From: a virus | Taxonomy: Duplodnaviria; Caudoviricetes | Virus record (IMG/VR): IMGVR_UViG_3300046331_000070 | Coordinates: 1-63,331 of that record | DNA length: 63,331 bases | Reading direction: 5' to 3' (one strand) | Shown here: positions 28,931 to 41,044 of the stretch, piece after piece | How positions within the stretch are numbered: the first letter of the stretch is position 1 | How the letters are laid out: each line of letters begins with the position of its first letter | Made by a program: the position numbers and the translations under genes | Notes under the pieces: generated by a model | The model's input: only the letters and a program-made list of their open reading frames with translations | Databases searched by the model: none | Told to the model about the DNA's origin: nothing

Positions 28931-29389
28931 ATGTCTAAGACATTTAAGCCACTGCTATTTTCTATGGATTCATTCAAGTCACTAGATCCATTCACAATCG
29001 GATTCGACAAACTAGTGGATGAATTTCAAGATACAATGAAAACTGTATCAAAGAACATTCCAACATACCCACCATACAATATCAAACAAGTTACTGATAA
29101 CAAATACGTTATCGAGATGGCTGTTGCAGGTTTCGCAAAGACTGATATTGAAATTACACTGGATGGTAAAAATCTGGTCGTAGAAGGTGTATCAAAAGAA
29201 TCAGAAGATGCAGCTGCATATATCTTTAAAGGTATTGCAAATAGAAACTTCAAACACTTGTTCAAATTAACCGACAAAATTGAAATCAAAGATGCTGAAA
29301 TGGCAAATGGTATGTTAAAGATTTGGTTGGAGAACATTGTCAAAGCACAAGATGCTGTTAAGAAAATCTCAATAGGTGAACCAAAATGA
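28931..29389 (+). CDS. hsp20: Small heat-shock protein (IbpA/Hsp20)
   Basis: YPPYNI, IEMAVAGF, GIA.R.F, A.M.NGML.I. Confidence 0.93.
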   Translation: MSKTFKPLLFSMDSFKSLDPFTIGFDKLVDEFQDTMKTVSKNIPTYPPYNIKQVTDNKYVIEMAVAGFAKTDIEITLDGKNLVVEGVSKESEDAAAYIFKGIANRNFKHLFKLTDKIEIKDAEMANGMLKIWLENIVKAQDAVKKISIGEPK

Positions 29390-29451
29390 ACTGGTGGCCT
29401 GTAAGTGATGAAGAATGGGAAGAATTAAACTTCCCAAAACCTAAACAGTAA
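29386..29451 (+). CDS. 21-aa peptide MNWWPVSDEEWEELNFPKPKQ
   Basis: ATGA overlap with the hsp20 stop; ends just before the terminator; not in the ORF track. Confidence 0.45.
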   Translation: MNWWPVSDEEWEELNFPKPKQ

Positions 29452-29455
29452 TCCT

Positions 29456-29482
29456 AAGGGGGCTTGACAAGTCCCCTTTTTT
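29456..29482 (+). terminator. Rho-independent terminator
   Basis: AAGGGGGCTTG-A-CAAGTCCCCTT followed by T-run. Confidence 0.75.
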
Positions 29483-29492
29483 AGTTTATAAT
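29464..29492 (+). promoter_or_regulatory. Sigma70-type promoter
   Basis: TTGACA-17 nt-TATAAT, perfect. Confidence 0.8.
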
Positions 29493-29501
29493 GGTCACAT
29501 C

Positions 29502-29699
29502 ATGAAAACTATCACTAAAGAAATTATCAAAAAACTCCGTGTGGTTACCACACAAGAAATCTTCTATTCATATTCTCATTGGCCAACCAAGGAGATTGAT
29601 GGTATTGAATTCTTGTCTGTGGTTAAACGCGATCCTTCAGGACACGATACTCAATCTGTTCATTGGATGCGTAAAGACTCATTGGAAGTTGTCAAGTAA
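29502..29699 (+). CDS. Hypothetical protein
   Basis: ATG 9 nt after the -10 box (nearly leaderless). Confidence 0.55.
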   Translation: MKTITKEIIKKLRVVTTQEIFYSYSHWPTKEIDGIEFLSVVKRDPSGHDTQSVHWMRKDSLEVVK

Positions 29700-29705
29700 A
29701 GAATT

Positions 29706-29781
29706 GGGCTTGTAGCTTAATGGTTAAAGCAGCGAACTCATAATTCGTTGAGTGTCGGTTCAATCCCGTCCAAGCCCACCA
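29706..29781 (+). tRNA. tRNA-Ile2/Met (CAT), Ile2-like
   Basis: Cloverleaf; GCGAA-CTCATAA-TTCGT; CCA end; body resembles ileX-type tRNA. Confidence 0.85.
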
Positions 29782-29793
29782 TTATATTATATT

Positions 29794-30288
29794 ATGAAAA
29801 CAAAATACATTCAATCGTTCATGGGAGCAGCAGAGCACTTTGCTGACTTGTCCACAGCCAGACGTTTACATGTTGGTGCAATCATTGTTAAAGACGATAG
29901 GATTATTTCTATTGGATACAATGGTACACCAAGTGGGTGGGACAATAATTGTGAAGATTATGATTATATGTCAGTTGATGCTGGCGGATGGATTGATACA
30001 CCCACTATTGAAAAGCAATGGCCATACACCGACCGTTTTGGACGCCGTTATGCGTTGAAAACAAAGCCAGAGGTACTACACGCAGAAACTAATGCAATCG
30101 CCAAACTGGCACGTTCCACAGAGTCTGGAGACGGCGCCACACTGTTTGTTACACATGCACCGTGTTTAGATTGTGCTAAATTGGTATATCAGAGTGGTAT
30201 TTCCACTGTTTATTATCGAAATGACTATAAACTGGATACTGGAATTAATTTTCTCCGCCAAGCTGGTGTCAAAATAGAAAAGGTATAG
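29794..30288 (+). CDS. cd: dCMP deaminase
   Basis: VGA.IV, GYNG.P.G, HAE.NAI, PC..C. Confidence 0.92.
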   Translation: MKTKYIQSFMGAAEHFADLSTARRLHVGAIIVKDDRIISIGYNGTPSGWDNNCEDYDYMSVDAGGWIDTPTIEKQWPYTDRFGRRYALKTKPEVLHAETNAIAKLARSTESGDGATLFVTHAPCLDCAKLVYQSGISTVYYRNDYKLDTGINFLRQAGVKIEKV

Positions 30289-30329
30289 GTCATAAATATG
30301 TAGAGATACGCAACCCATCTGGAGGTTTC

Positions 30330-30839
30330 ATGCAAATTTCAATTCGCAATTGTCCGGATAAGGCCTTCAAAGAGTATGTATTAGATGCAGCAGAATTTTA
30401 TGCAAAAGAATTGTTACCAAGTAACAGAGTAAGAAATAATTGTGCATTAAAGATTAGATTTTCAAATAAGATCGATGAATTTGGTTATGCAAGTGTATTG
30501 AAATGTAACAAATCAAACCAACCTCGTAGTTTTCTTATAGAAATACATCCAGGTATTGGTGCAAGACGAATCTTAGAAACACTAGCACATGAAATGGTTC
30601 ACGTTAAACAATATGTTAATGGTGAATTAAATGATAGATTATCTGCATGGTGTGGTGTGAAGGTAGATTCGACAAAGGTTGATTATTGGTCACACCCATG
30701 GGAGATTGATGCGTTTGGTAGAGAGACAGGTTTACTTTATAAATATGCAACATCAAGATGTTTATGGGAGATATTTGATGATTTTAGAAATCCAGAATTA
30801 CCAATTGTGTCCACTCCGATAAGGTGGTTGAGTGTATAA
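30330..30839 (+). CDS. Zincin-like metallopeptidase
   Basis: LAHEMVHVKQY (HExxH) and PWEIDA; late promoter CATAAATA at 30291. Confidence 0.75.
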   Translation: MQISIRNCPDKAFKEYVLDAAEFYAKELLPSNRVRNNCALKIRFSNKIDEFGYASVLKCNKSNQPRSFLIEIHPGIGARRILETLAHEMVHVKQYVNGELNDRLSAWCGVKVDSTKVDYWSHPWEIDAFGRETGLLYKYATSRCLWEIFDDFRNPELPIVSTPIRWLSV

Positions 30840-31346
30840 ATGAGTCATATAACACACGGCGAACACACCTACGGAACAAATTACATATCAATATATCAGT
30901 GGGGTGAAGGTTCTAAATTAAACATTGGGAAATATTGTTCTATTGCAGAGAATTGCAAGGTGTTTCTTGGTGGTAATCATAGAGTAGATTGGATATCAAC
31001 CTTCCCTTTTGATAAACAAACAGGTTCTAACGGTGATGTAAATATTGGCAATGATGTTTGGATAGGACATGGTGTTACAATCATGTCAGGTATCAACATT
31101 GGCGACGGTGCTGTTATTGCAGCAAATTCACATGTAGTCAAAAACGTAGAACCTTATGCAATTGTTGGTGGTAATCCCGCAGAGTTAATCAAATATCGTT
31201 TTGATGATACCATAACAGATTGTTTATTAAAATTGAAATGGTGGGATTTACCAGAAGATGCAAAAAATGAAATTAAAAAAGAACTAAGTGCTGTGCCAGA
31301 CCATAGTAAATTGATACGTTGGATAGAAAAATACAAAAAAAGTTAA
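30840..31346 (+). CDS. Hexapeptide-repeat (LbH) acetyltransferase, CatB/Vat-like
   Basis: IGKYCSIA, IGNDVWIG, GGNPA, KWWD. Confidence 0.85.
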   Translation: MSHITHGEHTYGTNYISIYQWGEGSKLNIGKYCSIAENCKVFLGGNHRVDWISTFPFDKQTGSNGDVNIGNDVWIGHGVTIMSGINIGDGAVIAANSHVVKNVEPYAIVGGNPAELIKYRFDDTITDCLLKLKWWDLPEDAKNEIKKELSAVPDHSKLIRWIEKYKKS

Positions 31347-31376
31347 ATATTTGTTGTTTTTTTGCGAAAAACACGC

Positions 31377-31405
31377 TTGCCAACAATAAAAGTTTACTAT
31401 ATACT
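31377..31405 (+). promoter_or_regulatory. Sigma70-type promoter of the leader and tRNA array
   Basis: TTGCCA-17 nt-TATACT. Confidence 0.65.
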
Positions 31406-31436
31406 CCTAACAAGTTAAAAAATTAAGAAAGAACAA

Positions 31437-31532
31437 ATGTTTTCCATACATAAACCCTTCGCAAGTCAACCAGAGTATCGCAATATTACATGCGATAATG
31501 GCTCATGGTCGGCGTTTGGAGTTTGTGTATAG
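31437..31532 (+). CDS. Putative attenuator leader peptide MFSIHKPFASQPEYRNITCDNGSWSAFGVCV
   Basis: 31 codons, 19 different amino acids; its 3' end forms the antiterminator strand; SD is weak. Confidence 0.65.
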   Translation: MFSIHKPFASQPEYRNITCDNGSWSAFGVCV

Positions 31533-31559
31533 ATTAAAAGTTGTTCTTAAAACTTACAC

Positions 31560-31598
31560 AAACCCAGACGACCAAAAGTTCTCTGGGTTTTTTGTTTT
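31560..31598 (+). terminator. Attenuator terminator
   Basis: AAACCCAGA/TCTGGGTTT stem followed by T-run; 5' arm can alternatively pair with 31513-31529. Confidence 0.75.
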
Positions 31599-31601
31599 AT
31601 G

Positions 31602-31654
31602 TGTTGCGTAAAAACAACAGTGTGGTTGACAAATAGAACCGGTTGTTATATAAT
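31602..31654 (+). promoter_or_regulatory. Sigma70 promoter with upstream TGTTG-N8-CAACA palindrome (copy 1)
   Basis: Palindrome 31602-31619; TTGACA at 31626, 17 nt, TATAAT at 31649. Confidence 0.8.
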
Positions 31655-31694
31655 ACGTTCTGTTGTGTTGATTTAGTAAGAAATTTAGATCAGT

Positions 31695-31768
31695 TGGGGA
31701 TTAGTTAAATGGTATAACTACGGATTTTGATTCCGTCGTTACAAGTTCGATTCTTGTATCCCCTGCCA
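31695..31768 (+). tRNA. tRNA-Gln (TTG)
   Basis: ACGGA-TTTTGAT-TCCGT; CCA. Confidence 0.9.
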
Positions 31769-31909
31769 TAATTAAGTGTTATAAGGTATCGTGTATTGAC
31801 GAATACACTATTCGGGTCCAACCGGCCGGGAACGGATCCTGACATAACTGCATCGGCTTTGGATGGGAAGCACCCAACTCTTAAATTGGCAGATAGCACT
31901 TAATTATGG
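31766..31909 (+). ncRNA. Structured RNA cassette closed by a 17-bp stem
   Basis: CCATAATTAAGTGTTAT/ATAGCACTTAATTATGG; internal hairpins GTGTATT/AATACAC and GGGTCC/GGATCC. Confidence 0.55.
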
Positions 31910-31917
31910 TAACAAAT

Positions 31918-32007
31918 GGAAGTGTGGCAGAGCCTGGTTTATTGCACCTGACTTGAAATCAGACGTATCGAAAGGTACCGTGGGTTCGAATCCTACCACT
32001 TCCGCCA
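31918..32007 (+). tRNA. tRNA-Ser (TGA)
   Basis: CTGA-CTTGAAA-TCAG; long variable arm; CCA. Confidence 0.92.
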
Positions 32008-32059
32008 GTATTAAAAATACTAAATAACAGATGACTCAACTGTTACTTAGGAAAATAAA

Positions 32060-32458
32060 ATGAATGTTAATCAAAAAGGTGTTAAAGGACTTATCAAAGT
32101 TATTGATGATTTACAAGATAGTGGTTATTATACGTTTACTGCGTTTGATGACCATTCACCAATAGATTTAATTGCTGTAGACAAACTTGGTAATTCTTAT
32201 AGACTTCAAGTGAAGTATAGAGAAAAAGATCCAAGAAAAATTAGTGAAAAATATTCAATCAACGCTTTTAGTGTTGTATCGGGCAAAAAAGTTCCAATAG
32301 ATAGAAATATGATCGATGGTTGGGCAGTTTATTTGGCCAACGTCAATCGGGTTGTTTACATTAATAAAACTCTATTAAATGATAAAGTTTGTTTAGTTAT
32401 TGACCCAAATAAGAATTATGGAGAATTGGATGAGTGGTTTAAATCGGCACCCTGCTAA
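32060..32458 (+). CDS. PD-(D/E)XK-type free-standing homing endonuclease
   Basis: KG..G, PIDLI...RLQVKY motif; inserted between two tRNA-Ser genes. Confidence 0.7.
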   Translation: MNVNQKGVKGLIKVIDDLQDSGYYTFTAFDDHSPIDLIAVDKLGNSYRLQVKYREKDPRKISEKYSINAFSVVSGKKVPIDRNMIDGWAVYLANVNRVVYINKTLLNDKVCLVIDPNKNYGELDEWFKSAPC

Positions 32459-32511
32459 GGTGTTGTGTTAGGAAACTAGCGCCGTGGGTTCAAATCCCAC
32501 ATTCTCCGCCA
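32420..32511 (+). tRNA. tRNA-Ser (GCT)
   Basis: GCACC-CTGCTAA-GGTGT; long variable arm; CCA. Confidence 0.92.
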
Positions 32512-32516
32512 GATAT

Positions 32517-32609
32517 ACTCCTGTAGTGTAACGGTAGCACGACGAGATTTATATCCTCGATTCGCTAGATGGGCGGTTAGAAAGGGTTCGAATCCCTTCG
32601 GGAGTACCA
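32517..32609 (+). tRNA. Atypical tRNA-Ile (TAT) with long variable arm
   Basis: ACTCCTG/CGGGAGT acceptor stem; CGAG(A)-TTTATAT-(C)CTCG; variable hairpin TCGCT/GGCGG; normal T-arm; CCA. Confidence 0.7.
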
Positions 32610-32625
32610 ATTTTAGAAAGTTATT

Positions 32626-32829
32626 ATGTTTAAAGTGTATTGGACAGTAATAGGACAAACCTATGGTCAAGAATTTGAAGATATGACACAAGCACTTAAT
32701 CAATGTCAAAGTTTAAGAAACAGTGGTGCAAGGTTTGTTACAATGTGTAGTGAGAATCCGGATAATGTCACAAAGATGGGCGTTGCAGAAACCGGTTCTG
32801 ACTATAATTGGAAAAAACGTAGAGTTTAA
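32626..32829 (+). CDS. Hypothetical protein
   Basis: Fills the gap between two tRNAs exactly; plausible composition. Confidence 0.6.
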   Translation: MFKVYWTVIGQTYGQEFEDMTQALNQCQSLRNSGARFVTMCSENPDNVTKMGVAETGSDYNWKKRRV

Positions 32830-32830
32830 T

Positions 32831-32907
32831 GTGGGTGTGTCGCTGAATGGTTAGGCAAAGGATTGCAAATCCTCATTATGCAGGTTCGAGTCCTGTCACC
32901 CACTCCA
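32831..32907 (+). tRNA. tRNA-Cys (GCA)
   Basis: AGGA-TTGCAAA-TCCT; U73; CCA. Confidence 0.88.
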
Positions 32908-32912
32908 AACGA

Positions 32913-32965
32913 TGTTGTGTAAAAACAACACACTGGTTGACAAATAGAATTAGATGTTATATAAT
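32913..32965 (+). promoter_or_regulatory. Sigma70 promoter with TGTTG-N8-CAACA (copy 2)
   Basis: Palindrome 32913-32930; TTGACA at 32937, 17 nt, TATAAT at 32960; near-duplicate of 31602-31683. Confidence 0.8.
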
Positions 32966-32999
32966 ACGTTCTGTTGTGTTGATTCAGTAAGAAACAAGT

Positions 33000-33061
33000 T
33001 GTTGCAGGAAAACAACAGTGTGGAAATAGAAGTTGCCAAAACGAGTGACTTCTGATATAAT
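33000..33061 (+). promoter_or_regulatory. Sigma70 promoter with TGTTG-N8-CAACA (copy 3)
   Basis: Palindrome 33000-33017; TTGCCA at 33033, 17 nt, TATAAT at 33056. Confidence 0.7.
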
Positions 33062-33107
33062 GTTGTTTCAGTAGTTGATGTTCATTAAAAATTTAAGTTT
33101 TATCAGT

Positions 33108-33182
33108 GTACCGTTAGACTTCTGGTGAGGTCACCACCCTTTCAAGGTGGCTAGATGGGATCGTAACCCATACGGTATACCA
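33108..33182 (+). tRNA. tRNA-Glu (TTC)
   Basis: CCACC-CTTTCAA-GGTGG; atypical T-loop ATCGTAA; CCA. Confidence 0.88.
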
Positions 33183-33293
33183 TATTAAAACATATTGCAT
33201 GACCGCCTCAGTGAAGGGATTCTAGAAGCCCGGTAGCGATCAATGCTTAAACATGCAGATGGGTTCGCATGGTGCAGTGTGTTTTAATATGGT
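33179..33293 (+). ncRNA. Stem-closed RNA cassette, family A
   Basis: ACCATATTAAAACATATTGCAT/GTGCAGTGTGTTTTAATATGGT, 22 bp including G-U pairs. Confidence 0.6.
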
Positions 33294-33301
33294 AATTCAA
33301 T

Positions 33302-33386
33302 GGGGATGCGGCTAAGTTGGAGAGTGGCGGCTGACTGTAAATCAGTTCTTTCGGGTGAGTAGGTTCGATTCCTTCCATCCCCACCA
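33302..33386 (+). tRNA. tRNA-Tyr (GTA)
   Basis: GCTGA-CTGTAAA-TCAGT; variable arm; CCA. Confidence 0.9.
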
Positions 33387-33450
33387 AGTTTTAATTTTTT
33401 TATAAAGGAAATTGTATGAAGCGAAAATCAAGTAAAACACGAAAACCCTC

Positions 33451-33525
33451 GGGGGTATAATTCAATGGTTAGAATATCCGGCTTTTAACCGGTCAATCAG
33501 AGTTCGAGTCTCTGTGCTCCCACCA
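33451..33525 (+). tRNA. tRNA-Lys (TTT)
   Basis: CCGG-CTTTTAA-CCGG; CCA. Confidence 0.9.
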
Positions 33526-33617
33526 ATATTAAAACATATTACTGACAATAGCGCAACGATAAGATGCCATGAGCACCTACAATAGAAGCACGATAAGATA
33601 GTATGTTTCAATATTGG
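33523..33617 (+). ncRNA. Stem-closed RNA cassette, family A, with internal tandem repeat
   Basis: CCAATATTAAAACATATTA/TAGTATGTTTCAATATTGG; loop has 2x ACAATAG-N4-ACGATAAGAT. Confidence 0.6.
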
Positions 33618-33644
33618 AAAATTATAAACAAGATTGGTGATAAT

Positions 33645-34571
33645 ATGATATTAGTTACTGGCGGCGCAGGATTTATCGGGTTAAACTTTGTAAAACATCT
33701 TTTAAAACTTAATGAAGATGTGGTTGTGGTTGACAACCTTACATATGCTAGTAATCCTAATGTTTTAATGTCGTTAAAAGTAAAACATGAATGTGTTGAC
33801 ATTGTAGATAATGTTGCATTAACATCGACACTAGATAATTATTCTTTCACTAAAATTTATCATTTTGCTGCTGAAAGTCATGTGGACAATTCAATTAATG
33901 ATGTGATGCCCTTTGTAAATTCTAATATAATCGGCACAATTAATTTATTGAATTATTTTAAAAATAAAGATGTAAAATTTATTCAGGTATCTACTGATGA
34001 GGTTTTTGGTGAAGTACCATACCCCGGCAAGTTTAATGAATATTCTAATATTGTTCCTCGTAATCCATATTCAGCAAGTAAAGCGAGTGCTGAACATTTT
34101 GTTAATGCATATAAGAATTCATATAAAATGAACACCGTTATTGTTAATAGTAGCAATAATTATGGACCGTATCAACATATTGAAAAGATGATTCCAAAAA
34201 CAATCACAAACATTATACAGAACAAAAATATTCCCGTATATGGCCAAGGCTTACAGATTCGTGATTGGATTTATGTAGAGGATACATGTGAAGCTATCTA
34301 TAAAATTTCTATGTTGGACAATAATATAGATAGATATTGTATTGGTGCTGATTATGAAATTAAAAATATCGATTTGGTTAAACGAATTGTATTAATGATG
34401 GACGCAAGCACCGATTTGATTAGTTATGTAAATGATAGACCTGGCCACGATATGCGTTACAGTACAGAAATTATTCAATTGCTACGCGATACGGACTGGC
34501 GGGTTACTCACTCATTAGATGTGGGACTTCAAAAAACAATCGAATGGTATAAAAATGAAAATAGGATTTAA
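33645..34571 (+). CDS. rmlB: dTDP-glucose 4,6-dehydratase
   Basis: GGAGFIG, AAESHVD, STDEV, YSASK, DRPGHD.RY. Confidence 0.93.
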   Translation: MILVTGGAGFIGLNFVKHLLKLNEDVVVVDNLTYASNPNVLMSLKVKHECVDIVDNVALTSTLDNYSFTKIYHFAAESHVDNSINDVMPFVNSNIIGTINLLNYFKNKDVKFIQVSTDEVFGEVPYPGKFNEYSNIVPRNPYSASKASAEHFVNAYKNSYKMNTVIVNSSNNYGPYQHIEKMIPKTITNIIQNKNIPVYGQGLQIRDWIYVEDTCEAIYKISMLDNNIDRYCIGADYEIKNIDLVKRIVLMMDASTDLISYVNDRPGHDMRYSTEIIQLLRDTDWRVTHSLDVGLQKTIEWYKNENRI

Positions 34572-35070
34572 TTGTTCAAGTTTTGATTTGTTTCATGCAG
34601 GTCATGTAACAATGTTAAAGATGGAAAAAGAATTATGTGATTATCTAATTGTGGCACTACAAGTTGATCCGACTGTCGATAGACCAGGCATTAAAAACAA
34701 ACCTACACAATCAATTTATGAACGATATGTACAATTACAATCGTGTAAGTATGTGGATGAAATATTGGTATATTCGACCGAATATGATTTACTTCAATTA
34801 TTGATGACACAAAAAATTAATATTCGTTTTTTAAGTGATGAATATCTAAACCGTGATTTTACTGGTAAACAATATTGTGTCCAGAATGGGATTGAATTGC
34901 ACTATCATAGACGTGAACACGGATATAGTTCCACAGAGTTGCGTAATCGAGTATATATACTCGAAAAGCAAAAACATGAACTGCAAGAACATGATATTGA
35001 TTTACCACAACATTCAACGGAATTAGTTGCAAAAAGTTTACCTATCATGTATGTTAAAACTGCAATATAA
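34555..35070 (+). CDS. Cytidylyltransferase (TagD-like), second copy
   Basis: FDLFHAGH, LQVDP..DRP, SSTELR. Confidence 0.85.
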   Translation: MKIGFNCSSFDLFHAGHVTMLKMEKELCDYLIVALQVDPTVDRPGIKNKPTQSIYERYVQLQSCKYVDEILVYSTEYDLLQLLMTQKINIRFLSDEYLNRDFTGKQYCVQNGIELHYHRREHGYSSTELRNRVYILEKQKHELQEHDIDLPQHSTELVAKSLPIMYVKTAI

Positions 35071-35099
35071 TCATCAGTTAATAATTATAAATGAAATTG

Positions 35100-35174
35100 G
35101 GTCTCAAAGTGTTCATGGACGCACATATGCCTGTCACGCATATAGAAGGGGATCGTTACCCCTTGAGACCGCCA
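35100..35174 (+). tRNA. tRNA-Asp (GTC)
   Basis: TATGC-CTGTCAC-GCATA; atypical T-loop ATCGTTA; G73; CCA. Confidence 0.88.
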
Positions 35175-35365
35175 GAGCAAAAGATGTCTGTGTGGTGTCT
35201 TTCGGGAATCACTAAGGTATCCAACGGTTGTAAGTGACGATGGGTGATATCGGAACTTTCAAGAATAAGTTGCAACTAATCTCGGTGCTCCCGTTCTCCC
35301 GAGTTAAAATGACTGACTGTAAGTTCTCCCTCTACGAGATAAAACTTTCAGTAATAACGGGGCCA
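35175..35365 (+). ncRNA. Candidate structured RNA ending in GCCA
   Basis: GAGCA/TGCTC-closed domain, then CCCGTT/AACGGG-closed domain followed by GCCA. Confidence 0.4.
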
Positions 35366-35381
35366 GAATTTAAAGTTTTAT

Positions 35382-35461
35382 TGCGGGATAGAGGAGTCCG
35401 GTCGTCCTCGCTAGTCTCATAAGCTAGAAATCGTGTGGTTCGAATCCCACTCCCGCAACCA
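35382..35461 (+). tRNA. tRNA-Met (CAT), initiator-like body
   Basis: TGCGGGA/TCCCGCA; CTAGT-CTCATAA-GCTAG; CCA. Confidence 0.85.
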
Positions 35462-35512
35462 AGTTTCAAATAGTTAATATATATAAATAGATTAACAAAA
35501 GGAGTTAATCAA

Positions 35513-35854
35513 ATGAATATATGTCAATGGCATCTTTGTAACAGTGAAACAAAAACAAAATTTTGCAGTACAAAATGCAAAAATAAATTTCATGTTGTAA
35601 AGAGAAGAAAAGTATTAAAGGAACAGGCTCTAACCTATATGGGTGGAAAATGTAGTATATGTGACTATGATAAATGTACATCCGCATTAGAGTTTCATCA
35701 CATAGACGAGAAAGAAAAAGATTTTGGAATCTCACAAGATGGTAATACTAGAACGTGGGAAGAAATAAAAAAAGAATTAGATAAGTGTGTTTTACTCTGT
35801 GCAAACTGCCATAGAGAAGTTCATGCTAAATTGAATAGTTTTATTCCTCAGTAG
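35513..35854 (+). CDS. HNH endonuclease
   Basis: CxxC pairs, ALEFHH, LLCANCHREVH; late promoter TATAAATA at 35482. Confidence 0.85.
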   Translation: MNICQWHLCNSETKTKFCSTKCKNKFHVVKRRKVLKEQALTYMGGKCSICDYDKCTSALEFHHIDEKEKDFGISQDGNTRTWEEIKKELDKCVLLCANCHREVHAKLNSFIPQ

Positions 35855-35919
35855 CTCAGCGGTAGAGCGACGCACTGTTAATGCGTTGGTCATTGGTTCG
35901 ATCCCAGTCTGAGGAGCCA
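35845..35919 (+). tRNA. tRNA-Asn (GTT)
   Basis: ACGCA-CTGTTAA-TGCGT; CCA. Confidence 0.92.
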
Positions 35920-35922
35920 AGT

Positions 35923-36148
35923 TTTGTAGTTTGTGTTAGATGTTGGGAAAGCAAAGCCTCGAAAACTTTGTGAAAGGGATAATCAGCGCGAATCTGGCTA
36001 AACTAGTAATCTCTGTTACTGACTATTACTGATGTGTCCATACTGGCCTACATAGTCGAAAGATTATGTGTGAGTACACCGCACCGTGCCGGACGGCTGA
36101 CGGGTGAACGATGAAGATAATAAGGACTTCATGCGAACTACAAATTCA
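35923..36148 (+). ncRNA. Large structured RNA, family B
   Basis: TTTGTAGTTTGTGT/ATGCGAACTACAAA closing stem; ACATAGTC-GAAA-GATTATGT hairpin inside. Confidence 0.55.
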
Positions 36149-36150
36149 AT

Positions 36151-36239
36151 ATCCCCCTTGCATACGGGGTACAATGTGATAAATTGTGTGCAGTCATACA
36201 GACCCCGACTTCGTATCCTCGGTCGATAAACGAGGATAC
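36151..36239 (+). ncRNA. Two adjacent H-type pseudoknot candidates
   Basis: CCCC/GGGG with loop TGCAT pairing to GTGCA; CGAC/GTCG interleaved with GTATCCTCG/CGAGGATAC. Confidence 0.45.
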
Positions 36240-36311
36240 ATATTAAAGCACATACTCGTCAATCTGGAACCGCGATGCCGAAAAGATTGGTGACAATGTG
36301 TGCTTTAATAT
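36240..36311 (+). ncRNA. Stem-closed RNA cassette, family A
   Basis: ATATTAAAGCACATA/TGTGTGCTTTAATAT; inner CAATCT/AGATTG. Confidence 0.6.
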
Positions 36312-36316
36312 AATTT

Positions 36317-36391
36317 GGGCTGTTAGTGCTAACGGGAACACATCTGGTTTGCAACCAGAAATTGAGAGTTCGATTCTCTCACGGTCCACCA
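36317..36391 (+). tRNA. tRNA-Ala (TGC)
   Basis: TCTGG-TTTGCAA-CCAGA; G3-U70; CCA. Confidence 0.9.
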
Positions 36392-36399
36392 AGTTTTAT

Positions 36400-36475
36400 G
36401 CCCCCTTAGCTCATCTGGTAGAGCACATGATTTGTAATCCTGAGGTGGTCTGTTCGAGTCAGACAGGGGGCACCA
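36400..36475 (+). tRNA. tRNA-Thr (TGT)
   Basis: Loop TTTGTAA; GCCCCCT/AGGGGGC; CCA. Confidence 0.9.
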
Positions 36476-36612
36476 GTATCCCGATTTACACTTTTGCGTG
36501 ATTAAAAGTGCGTCATTGCTAATACGATAGATGGCTCAGTTCTTATGATATTACTGCGAAGTCCCGCTACATGGGAGCCTTGAAAAATCATAGGTGTATT
36601 CAGATACCGCCA
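36476..36612 (+). ncRNA. Candidate structured RNA ending in GCCA
   Basis: GTATC/GATAC end-pairing; CACTTTT/AAAAGTG, TATGAT/ATCATA and TCCC/GGGA helices; 3' CGCCA. Confidence 0.45.
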
Positions 36613-36677
36613 AAATAACAATATCTGACGGACAGGGTAACTACTCAGTCTGGGGCTTATGGGAATAAGTAGCCAGA

Positions 36678-36787
36678 CACTTTATTAAAACATATTGTGG
36701 AGAGCACTGTATAGACTAGGAAGGTTTGACCCGACCTAATATATCACTCGGTATCCTGCGGCCGCAACAGTATGTTTTAATAAAGTG
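36678..36787 (+). ncRNA. Stem-closed RNA cassette, family A
   Basis: CACTTTATTAAAACATATTGT/ACAGTATGTTTTAATAAAGTG, 21 bp. Confidence 0.6.
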
Positions 36788-36860
36788 CGGGATTAGTTTA
36801 GGGGCAAAACTAGAGATTTCCAATCTTTCGTCATCGGTTCGATTCCGATATCCCGCTCCA
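36787..36860 (+). tRNA. tRNA-Gly (TCC)
   Basis: AGAGA-TTTCCAA-TCTTT; U73; CCA. Confidence 0.9.
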
Positions 36861-36867
36861 AGTTTAT

Positions 36868-36935
36868 GCGGCAAGGTATTAACCACACAGTGGCACCCCC
36901 ATTGTGGCTTAGTGAGAATCTAGGTTGCCGCTCCA
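36868..36935 (+). ncRNA. tRNA-like RNA lacking a D-arm, Gly-type acceptor stem
   Basis: GCGGCAA/TTGCCGC-T-CCA; T-like arm CTTAG-TGAGAAT-CTAGG; 8-bp hairpin CACAGTGG/CCATTGTG. Confidence 0.65.
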
Positions 36936-36943
36936 GTTTCAAT

Positions 36944-37017
36944 CTCGGTGTAGTGTAGTGATAACATACGTGGTTTGGGACCATGTGTCGAAGGTTTGAT
37001 TCCTTCTACCGAGACCA
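36944..37017 (+). tRNA. tRNA-Pro (TGG)
   Basis: CGTGG-TTTGGGA-CCATG; CCA. Confidence 0.88.
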
Positions 37018-37019
37018 AT

Positions 37020-37094
37020 GGTAGTGTAGCATAACGGTAGTGCGCCACCTTCATACGGTGTAAAGTGTAAGTTCGATTCTTACCACTACTACCA
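37020..37094 (+). tRNA. tRNA-Met (CAT)
   Basis: CACC-TTCATAC-GGTG; CCA. Confidence 0.85.
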
Positions 37095-37103
37095 AGGTTT
37101 AAT

Positions 37104-37179
37104 ACCACCTTCGTATAATGGATGATTACCTAACGCTACGAACGTTATTACGGGAGTTCGATTCTCTCAGGTGGTACCA
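37104..37179 (+). tRNA. tRNA-Arg (ACG)
   Basis: TAACG-CTACGAA-CGTTA; CCA. Confidence 0.88.
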
Positions 37180-37186
37180 AGTTTTT

Positions 37187-37260
37187 GCTCCGATAGTTAA
37201 ATGGTATAACTTTGGCTTGATAAGCCAACATCACAAGTTCAATTCTTGTTCGGAGTACCA
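37187..37260 (+). tRNA. tRNA-Ile (GAT)
   Basis: TTGGC-TTGATAA-GCCAA; CCA. Confidence 0.9.
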
Positions 37261-37268
37261 AGTTTTAT

Positions 37269-37342
37269 TACGGTGTAGTATAATGGCAGTGCTGCGGTCT
37301 CCAAAACCGCCAGTGGGGGTTCGATTCCCTCCACCGTAGCCA
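37269..37342 (+). tRNA. tRNA-Trp (CCA)
   Basis: GCGGT-CTCCAAA-ACCGC; CCA. Confidence 0.9.
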
Positions 37343-37357
37343 ACAAAGGGAGTTATT

Positions 37358-37828
37358 ATGAAACGATTGGATTTAATGGAAGTAAAAGCGTTCATTGATG
37401 CACAGAGTCCAGAAACTAAAATTTATCTGGGTGCTGACTCAGAACGTTTTAGATTGAACGATGTGTGGTACGCTGATTACACATTAGCCGTAGTCGTTCA
37501 TATTGACGGTAGACATGGTTGTAAAATCTTTGGTGAAGTTGTTCGCGAAAGAGATTATGACCAAAAGAAAAGCAAACCTTCAATGCGTTTGATGAATGAA
37601 GTATATAAAGTTTCAGAGTTGTTTCAAAAACTATCTGACGTATTAGAAGATCGTCATGTTGAAGTTCACTTGGATATTAACCCAAACGAAATGTACGGTT
37701 CTTCATGTGTAATTAATCAAGCAATTGGTTATATCAAAGGAACTTGTAATGTTATTCCAATGGTTAAACCACAAGCGTTTGCAGCATCATATGCAGCAGA
37801 TAGATTGAAACACGTTTTATACGCATAA
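37358..37828 (+). CDS. RNase H-like YkuK/DUF458 family protein
   Basis: IYLGADS, RLMNEV, EVHLDIN, KP.AFAASYAAD. Confidence 0.8.
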   Translation: MKRLDLMEVKAFIDAQSPETKIYLGADSERFRLNDVWYADYTLAVVVHIDGRHGCKIFGEVVRERDYDQKKSKPSMRLMNEVYKVSELFQKLSDVLEDRHVEVHLDINPNEMYGSSCVINQAIGYIKGTCNVIPMVKPQAFAASYAADRLKHVLYA

Positions 37829-37835
37829 GTACAAT

Positions 37836-37911
37836 GGTGTCCATGGTCTAACGGTTATGACCCAGGATTGTGATCCCTGGAATGTGAGTTCAACTCTCAC
37901 TGGACACCCCA
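37836..37911 (+). tRNA. tRNA-His (GTG)
   Basis: G-1:C73; loop TTGTGAT; CCA. Confidence 0.88.
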
Positions 37912-37914
37912 AGT

Positions 37915-38025
37915 TTTGTAGTCTATGTCTGGTACATAGGTAAACGGCGTTGCGGAATGGCGAAAGTCACGTTAAACATCGAATCGCAAACTAATAGAGT
38001 TGTGTCTCTGCCTACTACAAATCCA
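37915..38025 (+). ncRNA. Structured RNA, family B, ending in TCCA
   Basis: TTTGTAGT/ACTACAAA-T-CCA; inner CTATGT/ACATAG, TTGCG/CGCAA, TGGC-GAAA-GTCA, AGAG/CTCT. Confidence 0.55.
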
Positions 38026-38027
38026 AT

Positions 38028-38101
38028 GCCTCGGTAGTTTAATGGTAGAACGCCATCCTTACACGGTGGATATGGGAGTTCAATTCTCCAACGAGGTACC
38101 A
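38028..38101 (+). tRNA. tRNA-Val (TAC)
   Basis: CCATC-CTTACAC-GGTGG; CCA. Confidence 0.88.
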
Positions 38102-38103
38102 AT

Positions 38104-38179
38104 GCATCTTTAGCTGATGTGGTCATAGCAGGCGCCTGAAGAGCGTCGGAACGTGGTTCGATTCCACGAGGATGCACCA
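38104..38179 (+). tRNA. tRNA-Phe (GAA)
   Basis: GGCGC-CTGAAGA-GCGTC; CCA. Confidence 0.9.
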
Positions 38180-38230
38180 GAATTTATTATATATACTATT
38201 GCTCAATAAGAGTATTTTAGAGGAGTTATC

Positions 38231-38527
38231 ATGCGATTTTTAAAAACGATGATGTTCCTATTATGCCTAACAAGCACAATAGTGTATGCAGATGCACCAA
38301 CGCCGTATGAGTTACAAAAACCAGTAAAGTGTGCGAAAGCAAAAGAATTATTGGAATATTTTGAAAGTGAATATGGTGAAAAATTGTCATGGGTCGGAAA
38401 AGATGAAGCGTCCGATTCATTCATTGCAATTTTAATGAATAAAACAAATACAACTTGGACGATTGTACAATACACTCCACAAGTTGCATGTGTATTAGGT
38501 TCTGGTAAACAAGCCAGTCCTATTTGA
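38231..38527 (+). CDS. Hypothetical exported protein
   Basis: AGGAG SD; Sec-type signal peptide (..IVYA/DA); two Cys in the mature part. Confidence 0.65.
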   Translation: MRFLKTMMFLLCLTSTIVYADAPTPYELQKPVKCAKAKELLEYFESEYGEKLSWVGKDEASDSFIAILMNKTNTTWTIVQYTPQVACVLGSGKQASPI

Positions 38528-38534
38528 TGAAAAT

Positions 38535-38609
38535 GCTTCGGTAGCATAATGGTTAATGCCACTGCCTCTAAATCAGCCTATGTGGGTTCAATTCCCACCC
38601 GATGCACCA
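38535..38609 (+). tRNA. Putative amber suppressor tRNA (CTA)
   Basis: Canonical spacing places loop CTCTAAA with anticodon CTA; anticodon stem has only 3 WC pairs (CTG/CAG); D- and T-arms intact; CCA. Confidence 0.7.
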
Positions 38610-38626
38610 TTTATAAGGAGAAGTTT

Positions 38627-38665
38627 ATGAAAGAGTTTTTCGCATAGATTACACACCCGCCATAA
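38627..38665 (+). promoter_or_regulatory. Leader mini-ORF MKEFFA(TAG)ITHPP(TAA)
   Basis: Strong SD TAAGGAG; in-frame TAG at 38645, TAA at 38663 abutting the anti-SD strand. Confidence 0.55.
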
Positions 38666-38719
38666 ATTCTTCTTGTTAACCTGAGTAATAAATTATTTTA
38701 AATAACAAGGAGAATTACA

Positions 38720-39121
38720 ATGAGTATCGAATTAAAAATCAAATCAAAACATTTAAGCCTAGAATCAAAAGTCATTCGTTTTGAAGAACAGAAATTACAG
38801 AAACAAATACAGTGGCACACCAGTAGAGAAAAGAAACAAGCATGGGAAATAAAAGATGCTTGGCCATTATGTTTAAAAATCGGCAGTCTTACTTCACATC
38901 GAAAGTATAATGTTCGTAATGAAAATAGAGCAACTTTCTTAGCAAGAGCATATCTTGCAGGACAACCTTATAATCAAGTAGAGAATAAGAGAAAACCAGA
39001 GAAAGAAGGTACGTTTGAGATGGTCGTATTACCTAGAGTTTTAAAGATGGTTCAGAAATATGGTGGACGGAAAACCAGGGAATTAACGCTTGACAAACTC
39101 AAAGAATGGTGTTATAATTAA
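38720..39121 (+). CDS. Hypothetical basic protein
   Basis: SD AAGGAG lies inside a 14-bp hairpin; Lys/Arg-rich helical ORF. Confidence 0.7.
   Translation: MSIELKIKSKHLSLESKVIRFEEQKLQKQIQWHTSREKKQAWEIKDAWPLCLKIGSLTSHRKYNVRNENRATFLARAYLAGQPYNQVENKRKPEKEGTFEMVVLPRVLKMVQKYGGRKTRELTLDKLKEWCYN
39090..39118 (+). promoter_or_regulatory. Sigma70 promoter upstream of tRNA-Leu
   Basis: TTGACA-17 nt-TATAAT with extended TGn. Confidence 0.8.
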
Positions 39122-39130
39122 CAAATAAAT

Positions 39131-39207
39131 GCGGGAGTGGCGAAAATGGTAAACGCAGCGGTCTTAGAAGCCGTAAGCTGAGAGTTCGAGTCTCTCCTTC
39201 CGCACCA
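39131..39207 (+). tRNA. tRNA-Leu (TAG), short variable loop
   Basis: GCGGT-CTTAGAA-GCCGT; A73; CCA. Confidence 0.88.
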
Positions 39208-39213
39208 ATTAAT

Positions 39214-39289
39214 CTGGCGTTCGTATATCGGATTAATACAGCGCTCTTCTAAAGCGCGAAGGGGGGTTCGATTCCCTCACGCCGGACCA
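39214..39289 (+). tRNA. tRNA-Arg (TCT)
   Basis: GCGCT-CTTCTAA-AGCGC; CCA. Confidence 0.9.
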
Positions 39290-39338
39290 GTTTAAAACCA
39301 AAATGTTATAAATATATTTATTACACTTTGGAGTTCAG

Positions 39339-39836
39339 ATGCAAAAACGCTCACAGAATAGAGATTTGGCTATACAACAAAAACAAAAAACGTACATGAG
39401 TACACCATGTAAAAAGTGTGGTTCGGAAGAAAAATACGTTTCGAGTTATGGTTGTGTGAGTTGTAATATTGAAAGAAATTCTCACAAATTATTTGATGAA
39501 GAATTGATGAGTAAATATAAAACACCTGCTGTATTAAATTCAAAAACATACAGATATAGAACTAAAAAAAGAAATCAAATGCCGGATGATGCAGATCCAA
39601 AATTAATATTAAAATTTTATGAAGAATCTGAAAGATTGACCAAAGAAACTGGAATAAAATATAGTGTAGATCATATTATACCGATTTCTAAAGGTGGTTT
39701 ACATCACCAAGACAATCTTCAAGTGATAACATTAAGTGAAAATAGTAGAAAAGGAAATAGATTATGCCAGCAGTATTCCTCACATCCGACAGCCACTTCG
39801 GACACACCGGTGTGTGTAGATTCACTGATTCTGTGA
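39339..39836 (+). CDS. HNH endonuclease
   Basis: CxxC..CxxC, VDHIIP..KGGLHH..NLQ...EN..K; late promoter TATAAATA at 39307. Confidence 0.88.
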   Translation: MQKRSQNRDLAIQQKQKTYMSTPCKKCGSEEKYVSSYGCVSCNIERNSHKLFDEELMSKYKTPAVLNSKTYRYRTKKRNQMPDDADPKLILKFYEESERLTKETGIKYSVDHIIPISKGGLHHQDNLQVITLSENSRKGNRLCQQYSSHPTATSDTPVCVDSLIL

Positions 39837-40333
39837 CAGGTTTAAAGATTAGACCATGGACCGATCCAGATGAAATGGATGAGGAAATGGTCAAAAGATG
39901 GAACGATACGGTACGACCAAACGATAAAGTTTACCACCTTGGTGATGTTGTTATCAACCGTAAGGCACTCAAAACTATGAGCAGACTTAACGGTGATAAA
40001 GTTCTCATTCGTGGTAACCATGATATCTTCCGTGATGAAGAATATCGTGAATATTTTCGTGAACTTCGTGCATATCATGTAATGAACGGAATGATTCTTT
40101 CACATATTCCTATTCATGAAGAAAGTATTGGTCGTTTTGGAACAAACATTCATGGACACCTACATACAAGGCGTGTCATGAAAGATGGAATAATTGATCC
40201 AAGATACCATTGCGTATGCGTTGAACAAACAGACTTTGCACCTATTCTTTTCGAAGATGTTGTTAAGAGAATCTTAGCTGAAGGTGGTTCTGTTGGATTC
40301 AAAGAAAGAGTAGTCCGGTCCTCTGCTGATTAA
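39764..40333 (+). CDS. Calcineurin-like metallophosphoesterase
   Basis: SDSHFGH, HLGDV, GNHD, HGHLH. Confidence 0.9.
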   Translation: MPAVFLTSDSHFGHTGVCRFTDSVTGLKIRPWTDPDEMDEEMVKRWNDTVRPNDKVYHLGDVVINRKALKTMSRLNGDKVLIRGNHDIFRDEEYREYFRELRAYHVMNGMILSHIPIHEESIGRFGTNIHGHLHTRRVMKDGIIDPRYHCVCVEQTDFAPILFEDVVKRILAEGGSVGFKERVVRSSAD

Positions 40334-40421
40334 TCAGTACGATATGGCCAGAATTTACTGGTGAAATTATACGACGGTATAATGTACGGACATCTCGGGT
40401 GTGAGAAACACCCACGAATTT

Positions 40422-40508
40422 GCGAGTGTGGTGAAATAGGTAGACACAACAGACTTAAAATCTGTCGCTCGTGAGGGCGTGCCGGTTCGATTCCGGCCAT
40501 TCGCACCA
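40422..40508 (+). tRNA. tRNA-Leu (TAA)
   Basis: ACAGA-CTTAAAA-TCTGT; long variable arm; CCA. Confidence 0.92.
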
Positions 40509-40530
40509 GTTTAGCACTATATAAAGATAT

Positions 40531-40605
40531 GCGGGCATAATTCAGTGGTAGAATGCTTCCTTGCCAAGGAAAATGTCGAGAGTTCGAATCTCTCTGCCCG
40601 CTCCA
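40531..40605 (+). tRNA. tRNA-Gly (GCC)
   Basis: TTCC-TTGCCAA-GGAA; U73; CCA. Confidence 0.92.
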
Positions 40606-40615
40606 TGATTAACTT

Positions 40616-40870
40616 ATGAAAGACAACATGAACATTAGACCATTATCAAATAAAGTTGCAGTTAAACGTATGGCTGCGGAGAAAGCAACCGCTTCTGGTA
40701 TCATCCTTAAACGCACAGAAGAACCAGATCGTGCATTAGTTACTGCAATTGGTCCTGACATTACAGAAGTTGAAACTGGTGATGTTGTATTGCTAAATTG
40801 GAACAAAGCGACCAAATTTGATGATGATATGTTTATCATCAGTATTGATGAAATCGTTTTAGTTTATTAA
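40616..40870 (+). CDS. groES: Co-chaperonin GroES (Cpn10)
   Basis: IRPL.NKV.V, TASGII, V.AIG, GD.VL. Confidence 0.85.
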   Translation: MKDNMNIRPLSNKVAVKRMAAEKATASGIILKRTEEPDRALVTAIGPDITEVETGDVVLLNWNKATKFDDDMFIISIDEIVLVY

Positions 40871-40876
40871 ACGATT

Positions 40877-41044
40877 ATGTCTGACGGCGGTAAAGGAAGT
40901 AACCCAAGACCTTTCAGTGTTGATTCAAAAACATTTGAAAGTAATTGGGATAACATCTTCAAGAAAACACCAAAAGAGATTGATGATTCAAAGGCCGAAG
41001 ATGAGGCCTTTGAATCTATCATTAATAAAAAAACTACGGATTAA
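40877..41044 (+). CDS. Small hypothetical protein (55 aa, MSDGGKGSNPRP..NWDNIF)
   Basis: Fills the gap after groES; below the ORF-track cutoff. Confidence 0.6.
   Translation: MSDGGKGSNPRPFSVDSKTFESNWDNIFKKTPKEIDDSKAEDEAFESIINKKTTD

Follow-up and report, generated by a model that had tools for sequence, protein, structure and literature searches.

Positions 31377-31598 of the 63,331-nucleotide (nt) viral contig IMGVR_UViG_3300046331_000070, the whole of which we refer to as the window, very likely act as a functional attenuator of the transfer RNA (tRNA) operon that they precede. The element has the structural make-up of a trp-type attenuator: a short open reading frame (ORF), an intrinsic terminator, an antiterminator helix that excludes this terminator, and an ORF end lying on one arm of the antiterminator. 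We consider it probable that it works as a ribosome-mediated switch of this type which senses elongation and aminoacyl-tRNA supply in general and thereby controls transcription of phage tRNA genes. Translation of the ORF, activity of the terminator in the host and readthrough upon ribosome stalling are inferred from the sequence, as is the trigger, which would be either a shortage of tRNA late in infection or tRNA-cleaving host defences.

The window is a 63-kb IMG/VR contig with a CheckV completeness estimate of 38%. Its genes include those for a T4-type large terminase, a gp20 portal protein and UvsW, along with 28 tRNA genes spanning 29706-40605, one of which carries a CUA anticodon. Of the 23 DNA sequencing runs listed as sharing parts of it, 19 are labelled freshwater metagenome, and a tblastn search with a neighbouring 169-amino-acid (aa) protein returned only matches of <40% identity (Cr30, phiM12-like phages, cyanomyoviruses and Melnitz). 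Judged by sequence, the family to which this phage belongs thus consists of uncultured T4-like freshwater phages that have no cultured close relative.

Anatomy and conservation of the switch

The sigma70 promoter, the 31-codon ORF, the terminator and the competing helix all lie where the initial annotation had placed them (Table 1). The end of the ORF (31513-31529, CGTTTGGAGTTTGTGTA) is complementary to the segment 31555-31570 (TACACAAACCCAGACG), and the latter runs into the 5' arm of the terminator (31560-31568, AAACCCAGA), whose 3' arm (31582-31590, TCTGGGTTT) is followed by a T-run. The duplex between the 3' end of the ORF and the flank and 5' arm of the terminator has a predicted energy of -16.8 kcal/mol and covers 9 of the 9 nt of the terminator 5' arm. 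An automated terminator scan overlooked this particular terminator owing to its 13-nt loop. Below, we number the segments as is customary for attenuators: region 2 and region 3 form the antiterminator (the 2:3 helix), region 3 overlaps the terminator (3:4), and region 1, located early in the ORF, can pair with region 2.

Homologous leaders were gathered through flanking genes, the leader peptide being too short to serve as a query for loci. A gene for the 169-aa protein, located two genes upstream of the leader, has >570 relatives in IMG/VR, and 145 of the loci carrying it were taken in. In 80 loci with this gene a tRNA-Gln(UUG) usually follows 250-900 nt further on, and the 150-200 nt preceding that tRNA comprise a conserved promoter, a short ORF and a terminator. 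Among these 80 loci, nhmmer and a covariance model identified 48 with the element; together with the window these amount to 45 distinct RNAs, which encode 39 different peptides. Another 66 contigs were added by scanning for two conserved motifs, and the covariance model matched 65 of the 65 new loci, which brings the attenuator-like element to 48 + 65 IMG/VR contigs, or about 110. The initial annotation had called for a search for homologous leaders in front of phage tRNA arrays and had described the arrangement as attenuation geometry of the trp/his type; the element recurs, with this geometry conserved, across these roughly 110 related contigs. The peptide counts given below omit L074, L086, L087, L138 (uncertain start), L142 and L170 (5' end cut). 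In the near-identical contigs L002 and L003 (95.6% identity), the ORF, spacer and terminator are the same except for one loop base, the remaining differences falling upstream and downstream of this unit. When 29000-41500 was scanned with Rfam cmscan at E<=1, only tRNA matches and chance hits were obtained, none of them at 31377-31598.

Both alternative helices are maintained across the family. A G+C-rich terminator stem of 8-12 base pairs (bp) with a T-run was detected in 47 of 48 elements scanned, the one overlooked (L074) having an interrupted T-run; in the covariance-model alignment this helix is 99% paired, with 7 of its 11 pairs changed on both sides, and when the complete leader is folded naked, the minimum free energy structure (MFE) includes it in 41 of 45 elements. 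The 2:3 duplex, with energies between -11 and -25 kcal/mol, overlaps 6-12 nt of the terminator 5' arm in all 45 distinct RNAs, so that the two helices are mutually exclusive throughout, as had been proposed for the window alone. Its arms fit each other better than they fit the arms of other members: cognate arms average -18.4 kcal/mol as opposed to -15.3+-0.36 for permuted arms, and none of 10,000 permutations was as good. Arms that have changed together include GTGTA/TACAC, GTGGA/TCCAC (L103), TTCGT/ACGAA (L075), TTTGAA/TTCAAA (L108) and TATGT/ACATA (L038).

The covariation test proposed for the antiterminator in the initial annotation likewise came out in its favor. The 2:3 helix is 87.6% paired on alignment A4, which was fitted to the other conformation, and 91.1% paired on A5, for which the covariance model was fitted to the central hairpin and the terminator only and not to 2:3, as compared with 27-63% for slid controls. 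Six of its 11 pairs have changed on both sides. Its covariation score is equalled in 0 of 500 shuffles, a count that is not to be read as a probability since the sequences are related. RNAalifold applied to the raw MAFFT alignment (A2), in which the terminators are misaligned, yielded no structure, and the duplex tests and covariance-model alignments were used in its place. Relative to the first base of the stop codon, the 5' arm of the antiterminator ends anywhere between 18 nt upstream and 14 nt downstream. Between regions 1 and 2 a central hairpin is kept as well (77.9% paired, 5 of 15 pairs changed on both sides), its upper stem varying in sequence by clade while retaining complementarity.

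In each of the five leaders inspected (the window, L113, L043, L103 and L075) the MFE pairs codons 3-8 (ACAUAAACCC and variants) with region 2 around the central hairpin. This predicted layout, in which 1:2 and 3:4 oppose 2:3, can be likened to that of the classical trp leader, with 1:2 less well supported than 2:3. The 1:2 helix shows sequence conservation and is paired in 84.6% of alignment cells on A5, and cognate partners gain modestly over permuted ones (-10.6 versus -9.6 kcal/mol, P=0.0004); shuffle z-scores for this pairing were uninformative, with a mean z of -0.42.

The element stands directly before tRNA genes. A tRNA lies 2-300 nt past the terminator in 42 of the 45 distinct elements, the remaining 3 loci ending first, and this first tRNA is Gln in 34 cases, Trp in 4, Ser in 3 and Glu in 1. 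Of the 65 loci in the second set, 60 have a tRNA-Gln 88-107 nt further downstream and the remaining 5 end within 160 nt. Since the element thus always directly precedes the tRNA array wherever the sequence continues, it appears to be the leader of a tRNA operon and not a chance neighbor. A promoter homologous to P1 (10-12/12 consensus matches) is found ahead of 34 of the 45 distinct elements. A sigma70-like promoter P2, again with 10-12/12 matches, stands between the terminator and the first tRNA in 30 of 42 elements, the window included, where the caveat about further promoters in the initial annotation proved justified: a perfect 12/12 promoter at 31626-31654 precedes tRNA-Gln (31695). In the other 12 of 42 elements the gap between terminator and tRNA measures 2-53 nt and contains no promoter, so that these first tRNAs would be transcribable only through readthrough of the terminator.

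Table 1. Features of the leader and its immediate surroundings in the window
Feature	Position	Strand	Basis
Leader promoter P1, TTGCCA-17-TATACT	31377..31405	+	10/12 consensus matches
Leader ORF, 31 codons + TAG, MFSIHKPFASQPEYRNITCDNGSWSAFGVCV; weak Shine-Dalgarno (SD) sequence AAGAAAGAA	31437..31532	+	ORF listing; 19 amino-acid types
Region 1, TCCATACATAAACCC, codons 3-7; can pair with region 2	31443..31457	+	MFE of full leader
Central hairpin P inside ORF, base TATCGCA/TGCGATA, extension CCAGAG/CTCATGG; possible pause hairpin	31465..31513	+	MFE
Region 2, antiterminator 5' arm, last ORF codons (G-V-C-V)	31511..31529	+	Duplex and MFE
Small A/T-rich spacer hairpin, AAGTT/AACTT	31538..31555	+	Weak; MFE only
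Region 3, antiterminator 3' arm, overlapping terminator 5' arm	31555..31570	+	Duplex, covariation
Intrinsic terminator, AAACCCAGA, 13-nt loop, TCTGGGTTT, then TTTGTTTT	31560..31598	+	Read from sequence
Second promoter P2, TTGACA-17-TATAAT, between terminator and tRNA-Gln	31626..31654	+	12/12 matches
tRNA-Gln(UUG), first of 27 tRNA genes downstream (31695-40605)	31695..31768	+	tRNA gene calls

Reading frame and amino-acid diversity of the leader

All 45 distinct elements have the homologous frame open, as opposed to 6 and 0 of 45 for the other two frames, and differences in ORF length preserve the homologous frame. Starts come in two types: an ATG 6-7 nt past the -10 box, as in leaderless messages (18/45), or an ATG, GTG or TTG about 32 nt past the -10 box preceded by an SD-like motif (22/45); the stop codon invariably lies 22-40 nt ahead of the terminator arm. 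The peptide, by contrast, appears from the sequences to drift almost neutrally and not to be conserved as a protein. Nearest-neighbor comparisons count 272 non-synonymous and 78 synonymous codon changes, differences are spread over codon positions 1, 2 and 3 as 165, 162 and 225, and the residues that are conserved (E-Y-R, S-W and G-F-C-V) fall in codons belonging to the conserved helices. An open frame combined with a drifting peptide suggests that the act of translation, and not its product, has been selected. The leader ORF of the window ends in TAG, readthrough of which would extend it by 6 codons to a TAA at 31551; TAA and TAG are mixed among the stop codons of its relatives. The tRNA with the CUA anticodon (38535-38609), labelled 'Pyl' by ARAGORN, is likely an amber suppressor.

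Where a ribosome would have to stand was estimated with a footprint model whose mask reaches from 15 nt upstream to 12 nt downstream of the A-site codon, and which ignores a steric block between regions 2 and 3 and hence overestimates antitermination at the stop codon of longer ORFs. With the A site 1-10 codons before the stop the antiterminator is blocked, being formed in only 11-49% of elements, but it forms in 82% with the A site 12 codons upstream and in 89-100% from 13 codons upstream. The proposal that a stall at almost any codon would antiterminate therefore holds in this model for codons at least 12 before the stop, and fails over the last 10 or so, where the ribosome covers the arm. 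The stall-sensitive part so defined has a median of 25 codons and a median of 18 amino-acid types.

The amino-acid composition of these leaders is unusual. For the window, the reported 18 amino-acid types in the first 24 codons, 19 overall and no Leu proved correct on recounting, and its repeated residues do mostly switch codon, 28 of 30 codons being distinct (null mean 24.7, P=0.027). Of the 39 different peptides, which are 25-43 aa long, 20 have the full set of 20 types, 11 contain 19, 4 contain 18, 3 contain 17 and 1 contains 16, the initiator being counted as Met; the motif scan supplied 19 further full-length distinct peptides, 15 with 20 types and 4 with 19. Pooled, 35 of 58 distinct full-length peptides carry all 20 amino acids and another 15 carry 19. 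There are no codon runs; nearly every amino acid is represented by one to three codons.

None of the null models that we applied reproduces this. Random windows of 744 phage ORFs contain on average 14.5-16.5 types, with a probability of all 20 of 0.0002-0.009 per peptide; a simulation that keeps the ORF base pairs, the base composition of the family and the open frame yields means of 14.3-17.2 (0.001-0.027); and shuffling within codon positions yields 14.4-17.9 (0.001-0.07). Permuting alignment columns, which preserves site conservation, produces a mean of 17.71+-0.17 types as compared with 19.18 observed, and 2.3+-1.4 peptides with 20 types, never more than 9 in 5000 permutations, as compared with 20 observed. 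The diversity that the initial annotation had regarded as unusual in one leader is thus a property of the family, 35 of 58 peptides with all 20 amino acids standing against a random expectation of 14.5-17 types.

The complete set is, moreover, reached in different ways. Members of distant pairs share only 6-9 types as identical residues and each complete the set with residues of their own (P ~0.004-0.05 even under the flat composition of the family, and ~0.004-0.02 each in examples such as L056/L105, L101/L109 and L056/L109). The rare residues His, Cys and Trp shift position by clade yet persist, His occurring at at least 6 positions, and in L043, L046 and one of the new peptides the usual His5 and Arg15 are swapped or moved. 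Synonymous variety is raised too, with 1153 distinct codons across the family versus 1081+-10.6 expected from phage codon usage, which could simply reflect a lack of codon adaptation. The window taken alone is less telling: the probability of at least 19 types in 31 aa is 0.004 from phage-protein windows, 0.012 from the structure-preserving simulation and 0.042 from codon-position shuffles, and among its 467 six-frame ORFs of 25-45 aa four have 19 types and none has 20, the leader being the only one of the 132 ORFs of 29-33 aa to reach 19. Its composition by itself is only suggestive; it is the comparative data that make the diversity significant.

The initial annotation had also related the absence of Leu to the separate promoter of the Leu tRNAs. 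This did not survive comparison, because 37 of 39 leaders contain Leu; the absence is a coincidence. More generally, no match is evident between the amino acids that a leader lacks and the tRNAs that its array lacks, as far as the arrays lie within the loci and are visible: the window leader lacks Leu, yet its array has two tRNA-Leu genes, and L059-type leaders lack Ala, Gly and Gln, with Gly or Gln tRNAs downstream in L060, L066 and L073.

A proposed mechanism and its rivals

In the mechanism that we favor, transcription would start at P1 and the short ORF would be translated. A ribosome keeping pace with RNA polymerase would be on or just past region 2 as region 3 emerges, the terminator would form, and transcription would stop before tRNA-Gln. 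A ribosome that lags, or is stalled more than about 12 codons before the stop codon, would leave region 2 free to pair with region 3; no terminator could then form, and the polymerase would enter the tRNA genes. A feedback loop would ensue in which slow decoding leads to more phage tRNA. Since nearly every amino acid has one to three codons in the leader and none has a run, what it would report is the general speed of elongation, that is, whether any aminoacyl-tRNA is in insufficient supply. Likewise, the most economical reading of an open ORF that drifts freely and retains a near-complete set of amino acids is that it samples the decoding of all aminoacyl-tRNAs. Going a step further, and more tentatively, we suggest that the leader may be an 'all-20' probe by which the shortage or destruction of any aminoacyl-tRNA is detected and answered with the phage's own complete tRNA set, in effect a self-regulating counter-defence circuit; this reading is plausible, although we would not yet call it probable. 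Its triggers could be the decay of host tRNAs following the breakdown of host DNA, or the anticodon nucleases of anti-phage defence.

Several observations weigh against ribosome-mediated, general sensing of this kind. With one to three codons per amino acid, the design is much weaker than that of the classical leaders with their runs of His, Leu, Thr or Phe codons. Helices within the ORF by themselves make 1-2 more types expected; the stall-sensitive part, as given by the footprint model, lacks Val in 29 of 39 peptides, Gly in 18, Ala in 13 and Trp in 12, these four often being supplied by region-2 codons only; and the short L059-type leaders have only 16-18 types. A search for 1:2 covariation beyond shuffles on A5 found none. 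According to equilibrium folding, naked RNA truncated before the terminator 3' arm forms 2:3 in 39 of 45 elements, so that absence of translation may also mean readthrough. The strong promoter present after the terminator in 30 of 42 elements, including the window, implies that readthrough there can add only part of the tRNA transcription. A marine metatranscriptome (0.05 of the words shared), the only RNA run among those listed to share any words of the stretch, contains RNA contigs over 31691-32009, comprising tRNAs and intervening RNA at 85-99% likeness; these contigs do not cover the leader, and are of a kind that cannot show starts, ends or absence. There is no close cultured relative, a search of 50,697 phage records having returned no DNA match to 31300-31700. 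Finally, all family counts come from sequences related by descent and are not independent trials.

Part of this evidence would also be accommodated if the attenuator sensed overall translation only, be it the availability of ribosomes, initiation or global inhibition, and not each aminoacyl-tRNA. The anatomy would be identical, and because naked truncated RNA so often forms the antiterminator, the mere absence of a ribosome would suffice for readthrough. The flat composition would then either avoid bias towards one amino acid or be a by-product of packing helices into the frame, which is in keeping with the structure-aware null raising the expected number of types to 14.3-17.2 and with Val and Gly often being confined to the insensitive 3' part. 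A tRNA array of Anabaena is induced by general translational stress (PMC8421152). A pure on/off sensor of translation, however, requires no particular composition. The 35 of 58 leaders with all 20 amino acids are reproduced neither by the structure-preserving null (P 0.001-0.027) nor by column permutation, and His, Cys and Trp stay present even though they relocate between clades. We therefore regard a sensor limited to overall translation as rather unlikely, though it is the most serious competitor to sensing of aminoacyl-tRNA supply.

The own promoter and own terminator of the element, together with the separate promoter just downstream that the tRNAs have in 30 of 42 cases, would also befit an independent early unit producing a small RNA or a small protein, linked to the tRNAs by synteny only and using its pairing for stability or for a function in trans; attenuator RNAs and leader peptides of Sinorhizobium reportedly can act in trans. 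We judge this improbable, given that 12 of 42 first tRNAs follow the terminator at 2-53 nt without a promoter of their own and that covariation ties the 3' end of the ORF specifically to the terminator 5' arm. Near-neutral evolution of the peptide argues against a functional protein, a frame open in 45 of 45 elements with interchanging leaderless and SD-type starts argues against a plain non-coding RNA, and no Rfam family matches. The least probable explanation, to which we accord very little weight, is a nascent peptide of the TnaC or SecM type, in which a motif E-Y-R ... D ... S-W ... G-F-C-V would arrest the ribosome in response to a small molecule or factor. A motif consisting of Q, EYR(T), SW and G does occur in at least 60% of the 39 aligned peptides, and the conserved Trp is 7-10 residues from the end of the shorter ones. 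These residues nevertheless coincide with the RNA helices TATCGC/GCGATA, CCAGAG/CTCATGG and GGGTTTTGTGT, non-synonymous and synonymous changes stand overall at 272:78, and the divergent L044, L062, L064, L037 and L075 lack most of the motif while keeping the RNA switch.

Genomic surroundings and relation to known systems

Further features accompany the switch in the tRNA region of the window. Between tRNA-Gln and tRNA-Ser, positions 31769-31917 encode a structured RNA of about 149 nt with a 14-bp closing stem (TAATTAAGTGTTAT/ATAGCACTTAATTA), an MFE of -42 kcal/mol (z -2.96) and no Rfam match. Counterparts with a similar closing stem follow the first tRNA in L031, L037 and L108, and marine metatranscriptome contigs match 31781-31911 at about 85-95%. 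The tRNA region of T4 encodes small RNAs, and by analogy the 31769-31917 RNA may be a stable RNA of that kind. Perfect or near-perfect TTGACA-17-TATAAT promoters are repeated within the array at 29464, 31626, 32937 and 39090 (also at 33033), in the form of cassettes of about 80 nt with a small upstream hairpin (GTGTTG...CAACA) and a conserved downstream stretch. The array also contains a PD-(D/E)XK endonuclease gene (32060-32458; PF11645, E 7e-7) between tRNA-Ser(UGA) and tRNA-Ser(GCU), with homologues at the same place in L031-L037. The tRNA-Ile(UAU) called at 32517-32609 is, at 93 nt, unusually long and abuts tRNA-Ser(GCU).

In a sister clade (L077, L079, L081, L082, L088, L090, L092-L094, L097-L099, L102 and L104) a different unit replaces the attenuator, at a distance of about 10-330 nt past the 169-aa gene. 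A consensus promoter is followed in this unit by a tRNA-like RNA (GCGG...CCGCTCCA), about 75 nt long and not called by ARAGORN, and in most cases by a small ORF rich in lysine (MAVSKSKKKNPMLTKNGKPRLGPLN...), ahead of tRNA-Thr, Met or Gly. L086 and L087 (3456-3587) have a reduced element, in which the 3' end of the 169-aa gene seems to supply a region-2-like GAGGATTTTGTAAG complementary to the flank of the following terminator (TTCAAAACCTCAAGG...).

The closest structural relatives of the element are the trp, his, leu, thr, ilv and pheA leaders of Escherichia coli, ribosome-mediated attenuators of amino-acid operons that follow the Yanofsky model. Common to both are a promoter-proximal short ORF, a terminator before the regulated genes and an exclusive antiterminator formed from the 3' end of the ORF; a possible pairing of region 1 with region 2 and a decision made by ribosome position, predicted here, would be further likenesses. 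In contrast to these leaders, the phage element precedes tRNA genes instead of biosynthetic genes and has one to three codons of all or nearly all 20 amino acids where they have a run of a single codon; it also contains an additional conserved hairpin within the ORF, is leaderless in many copies and matches no Rfam leader. The T-box riboswitch is a terminator/antiterminator switch as well and responds to tRNA charging, but it binds one uncharged tRNA directly and needs no ORF, whereas the phage element has an ORF, no Rfam T-box match and no specifier loop that we could see. Antibiotic-responsive attenuators of the erm and cat type, and reportedly also the mef/mel leader, rely on ribosome stalling. 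They resemble the phage element in combining a leader ORF with a terminator such that any slowing of the ribosome leads to readthrough, a form of general translation sensing, but they control resistance genes and usually need particular peptide and drug contexts, whereas the output here would be tRNA and the composition is flat.

Phages have been known to carry tRNA genes for more than 50 years, and to our knowledge the regulation of the expression of these genes has been little explored. Their role is now reported to be linked to host defences that target tRNA (PMC10264068, PMC11555353). The nearest functional analogue that we found in print is the L-array of Anabaena sp. PCC 7120, an accessory, horizontally mobile set of about 23 tRNA genes that are transcriptionally induced upon impairment of translation (PMC8421152). 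Both are accessory tRNA arrays, and induction upon impaired translation is what we propose for the phage; the L-array is, however, bacterial and not of phage origin. None of the terms attenuat-, leader, terminator, uORF and small ORF appears in the main text of that paper, and no leader-peptide mechanism is described there. Searches of the literature outside subscription journals turned up no account of an attenuator or leader peptide in front of phage tRNA genes, nor of a leader sampling all 20 amino acids.

Taken together, these findings, if the proposed mechanism is true, would represent the first case found of attenuation controlling tRNA genes, as well as the first natural leader whose composition seems to have been selected to sample every amino acid. 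The textbook sensor of a single amino acid would thereby become a general speedometer of translation. The mechanism provides a testable model for a demand-driven supply of tRNA during infection, and the element itself, at about 160 nt, a compact natural part for reporting translational stress. Its abundance in freshwater metagenomes (about 110 contigs, with >570 relatives of the neighboring gene) suggests that it is of ecological relevance to these phages.

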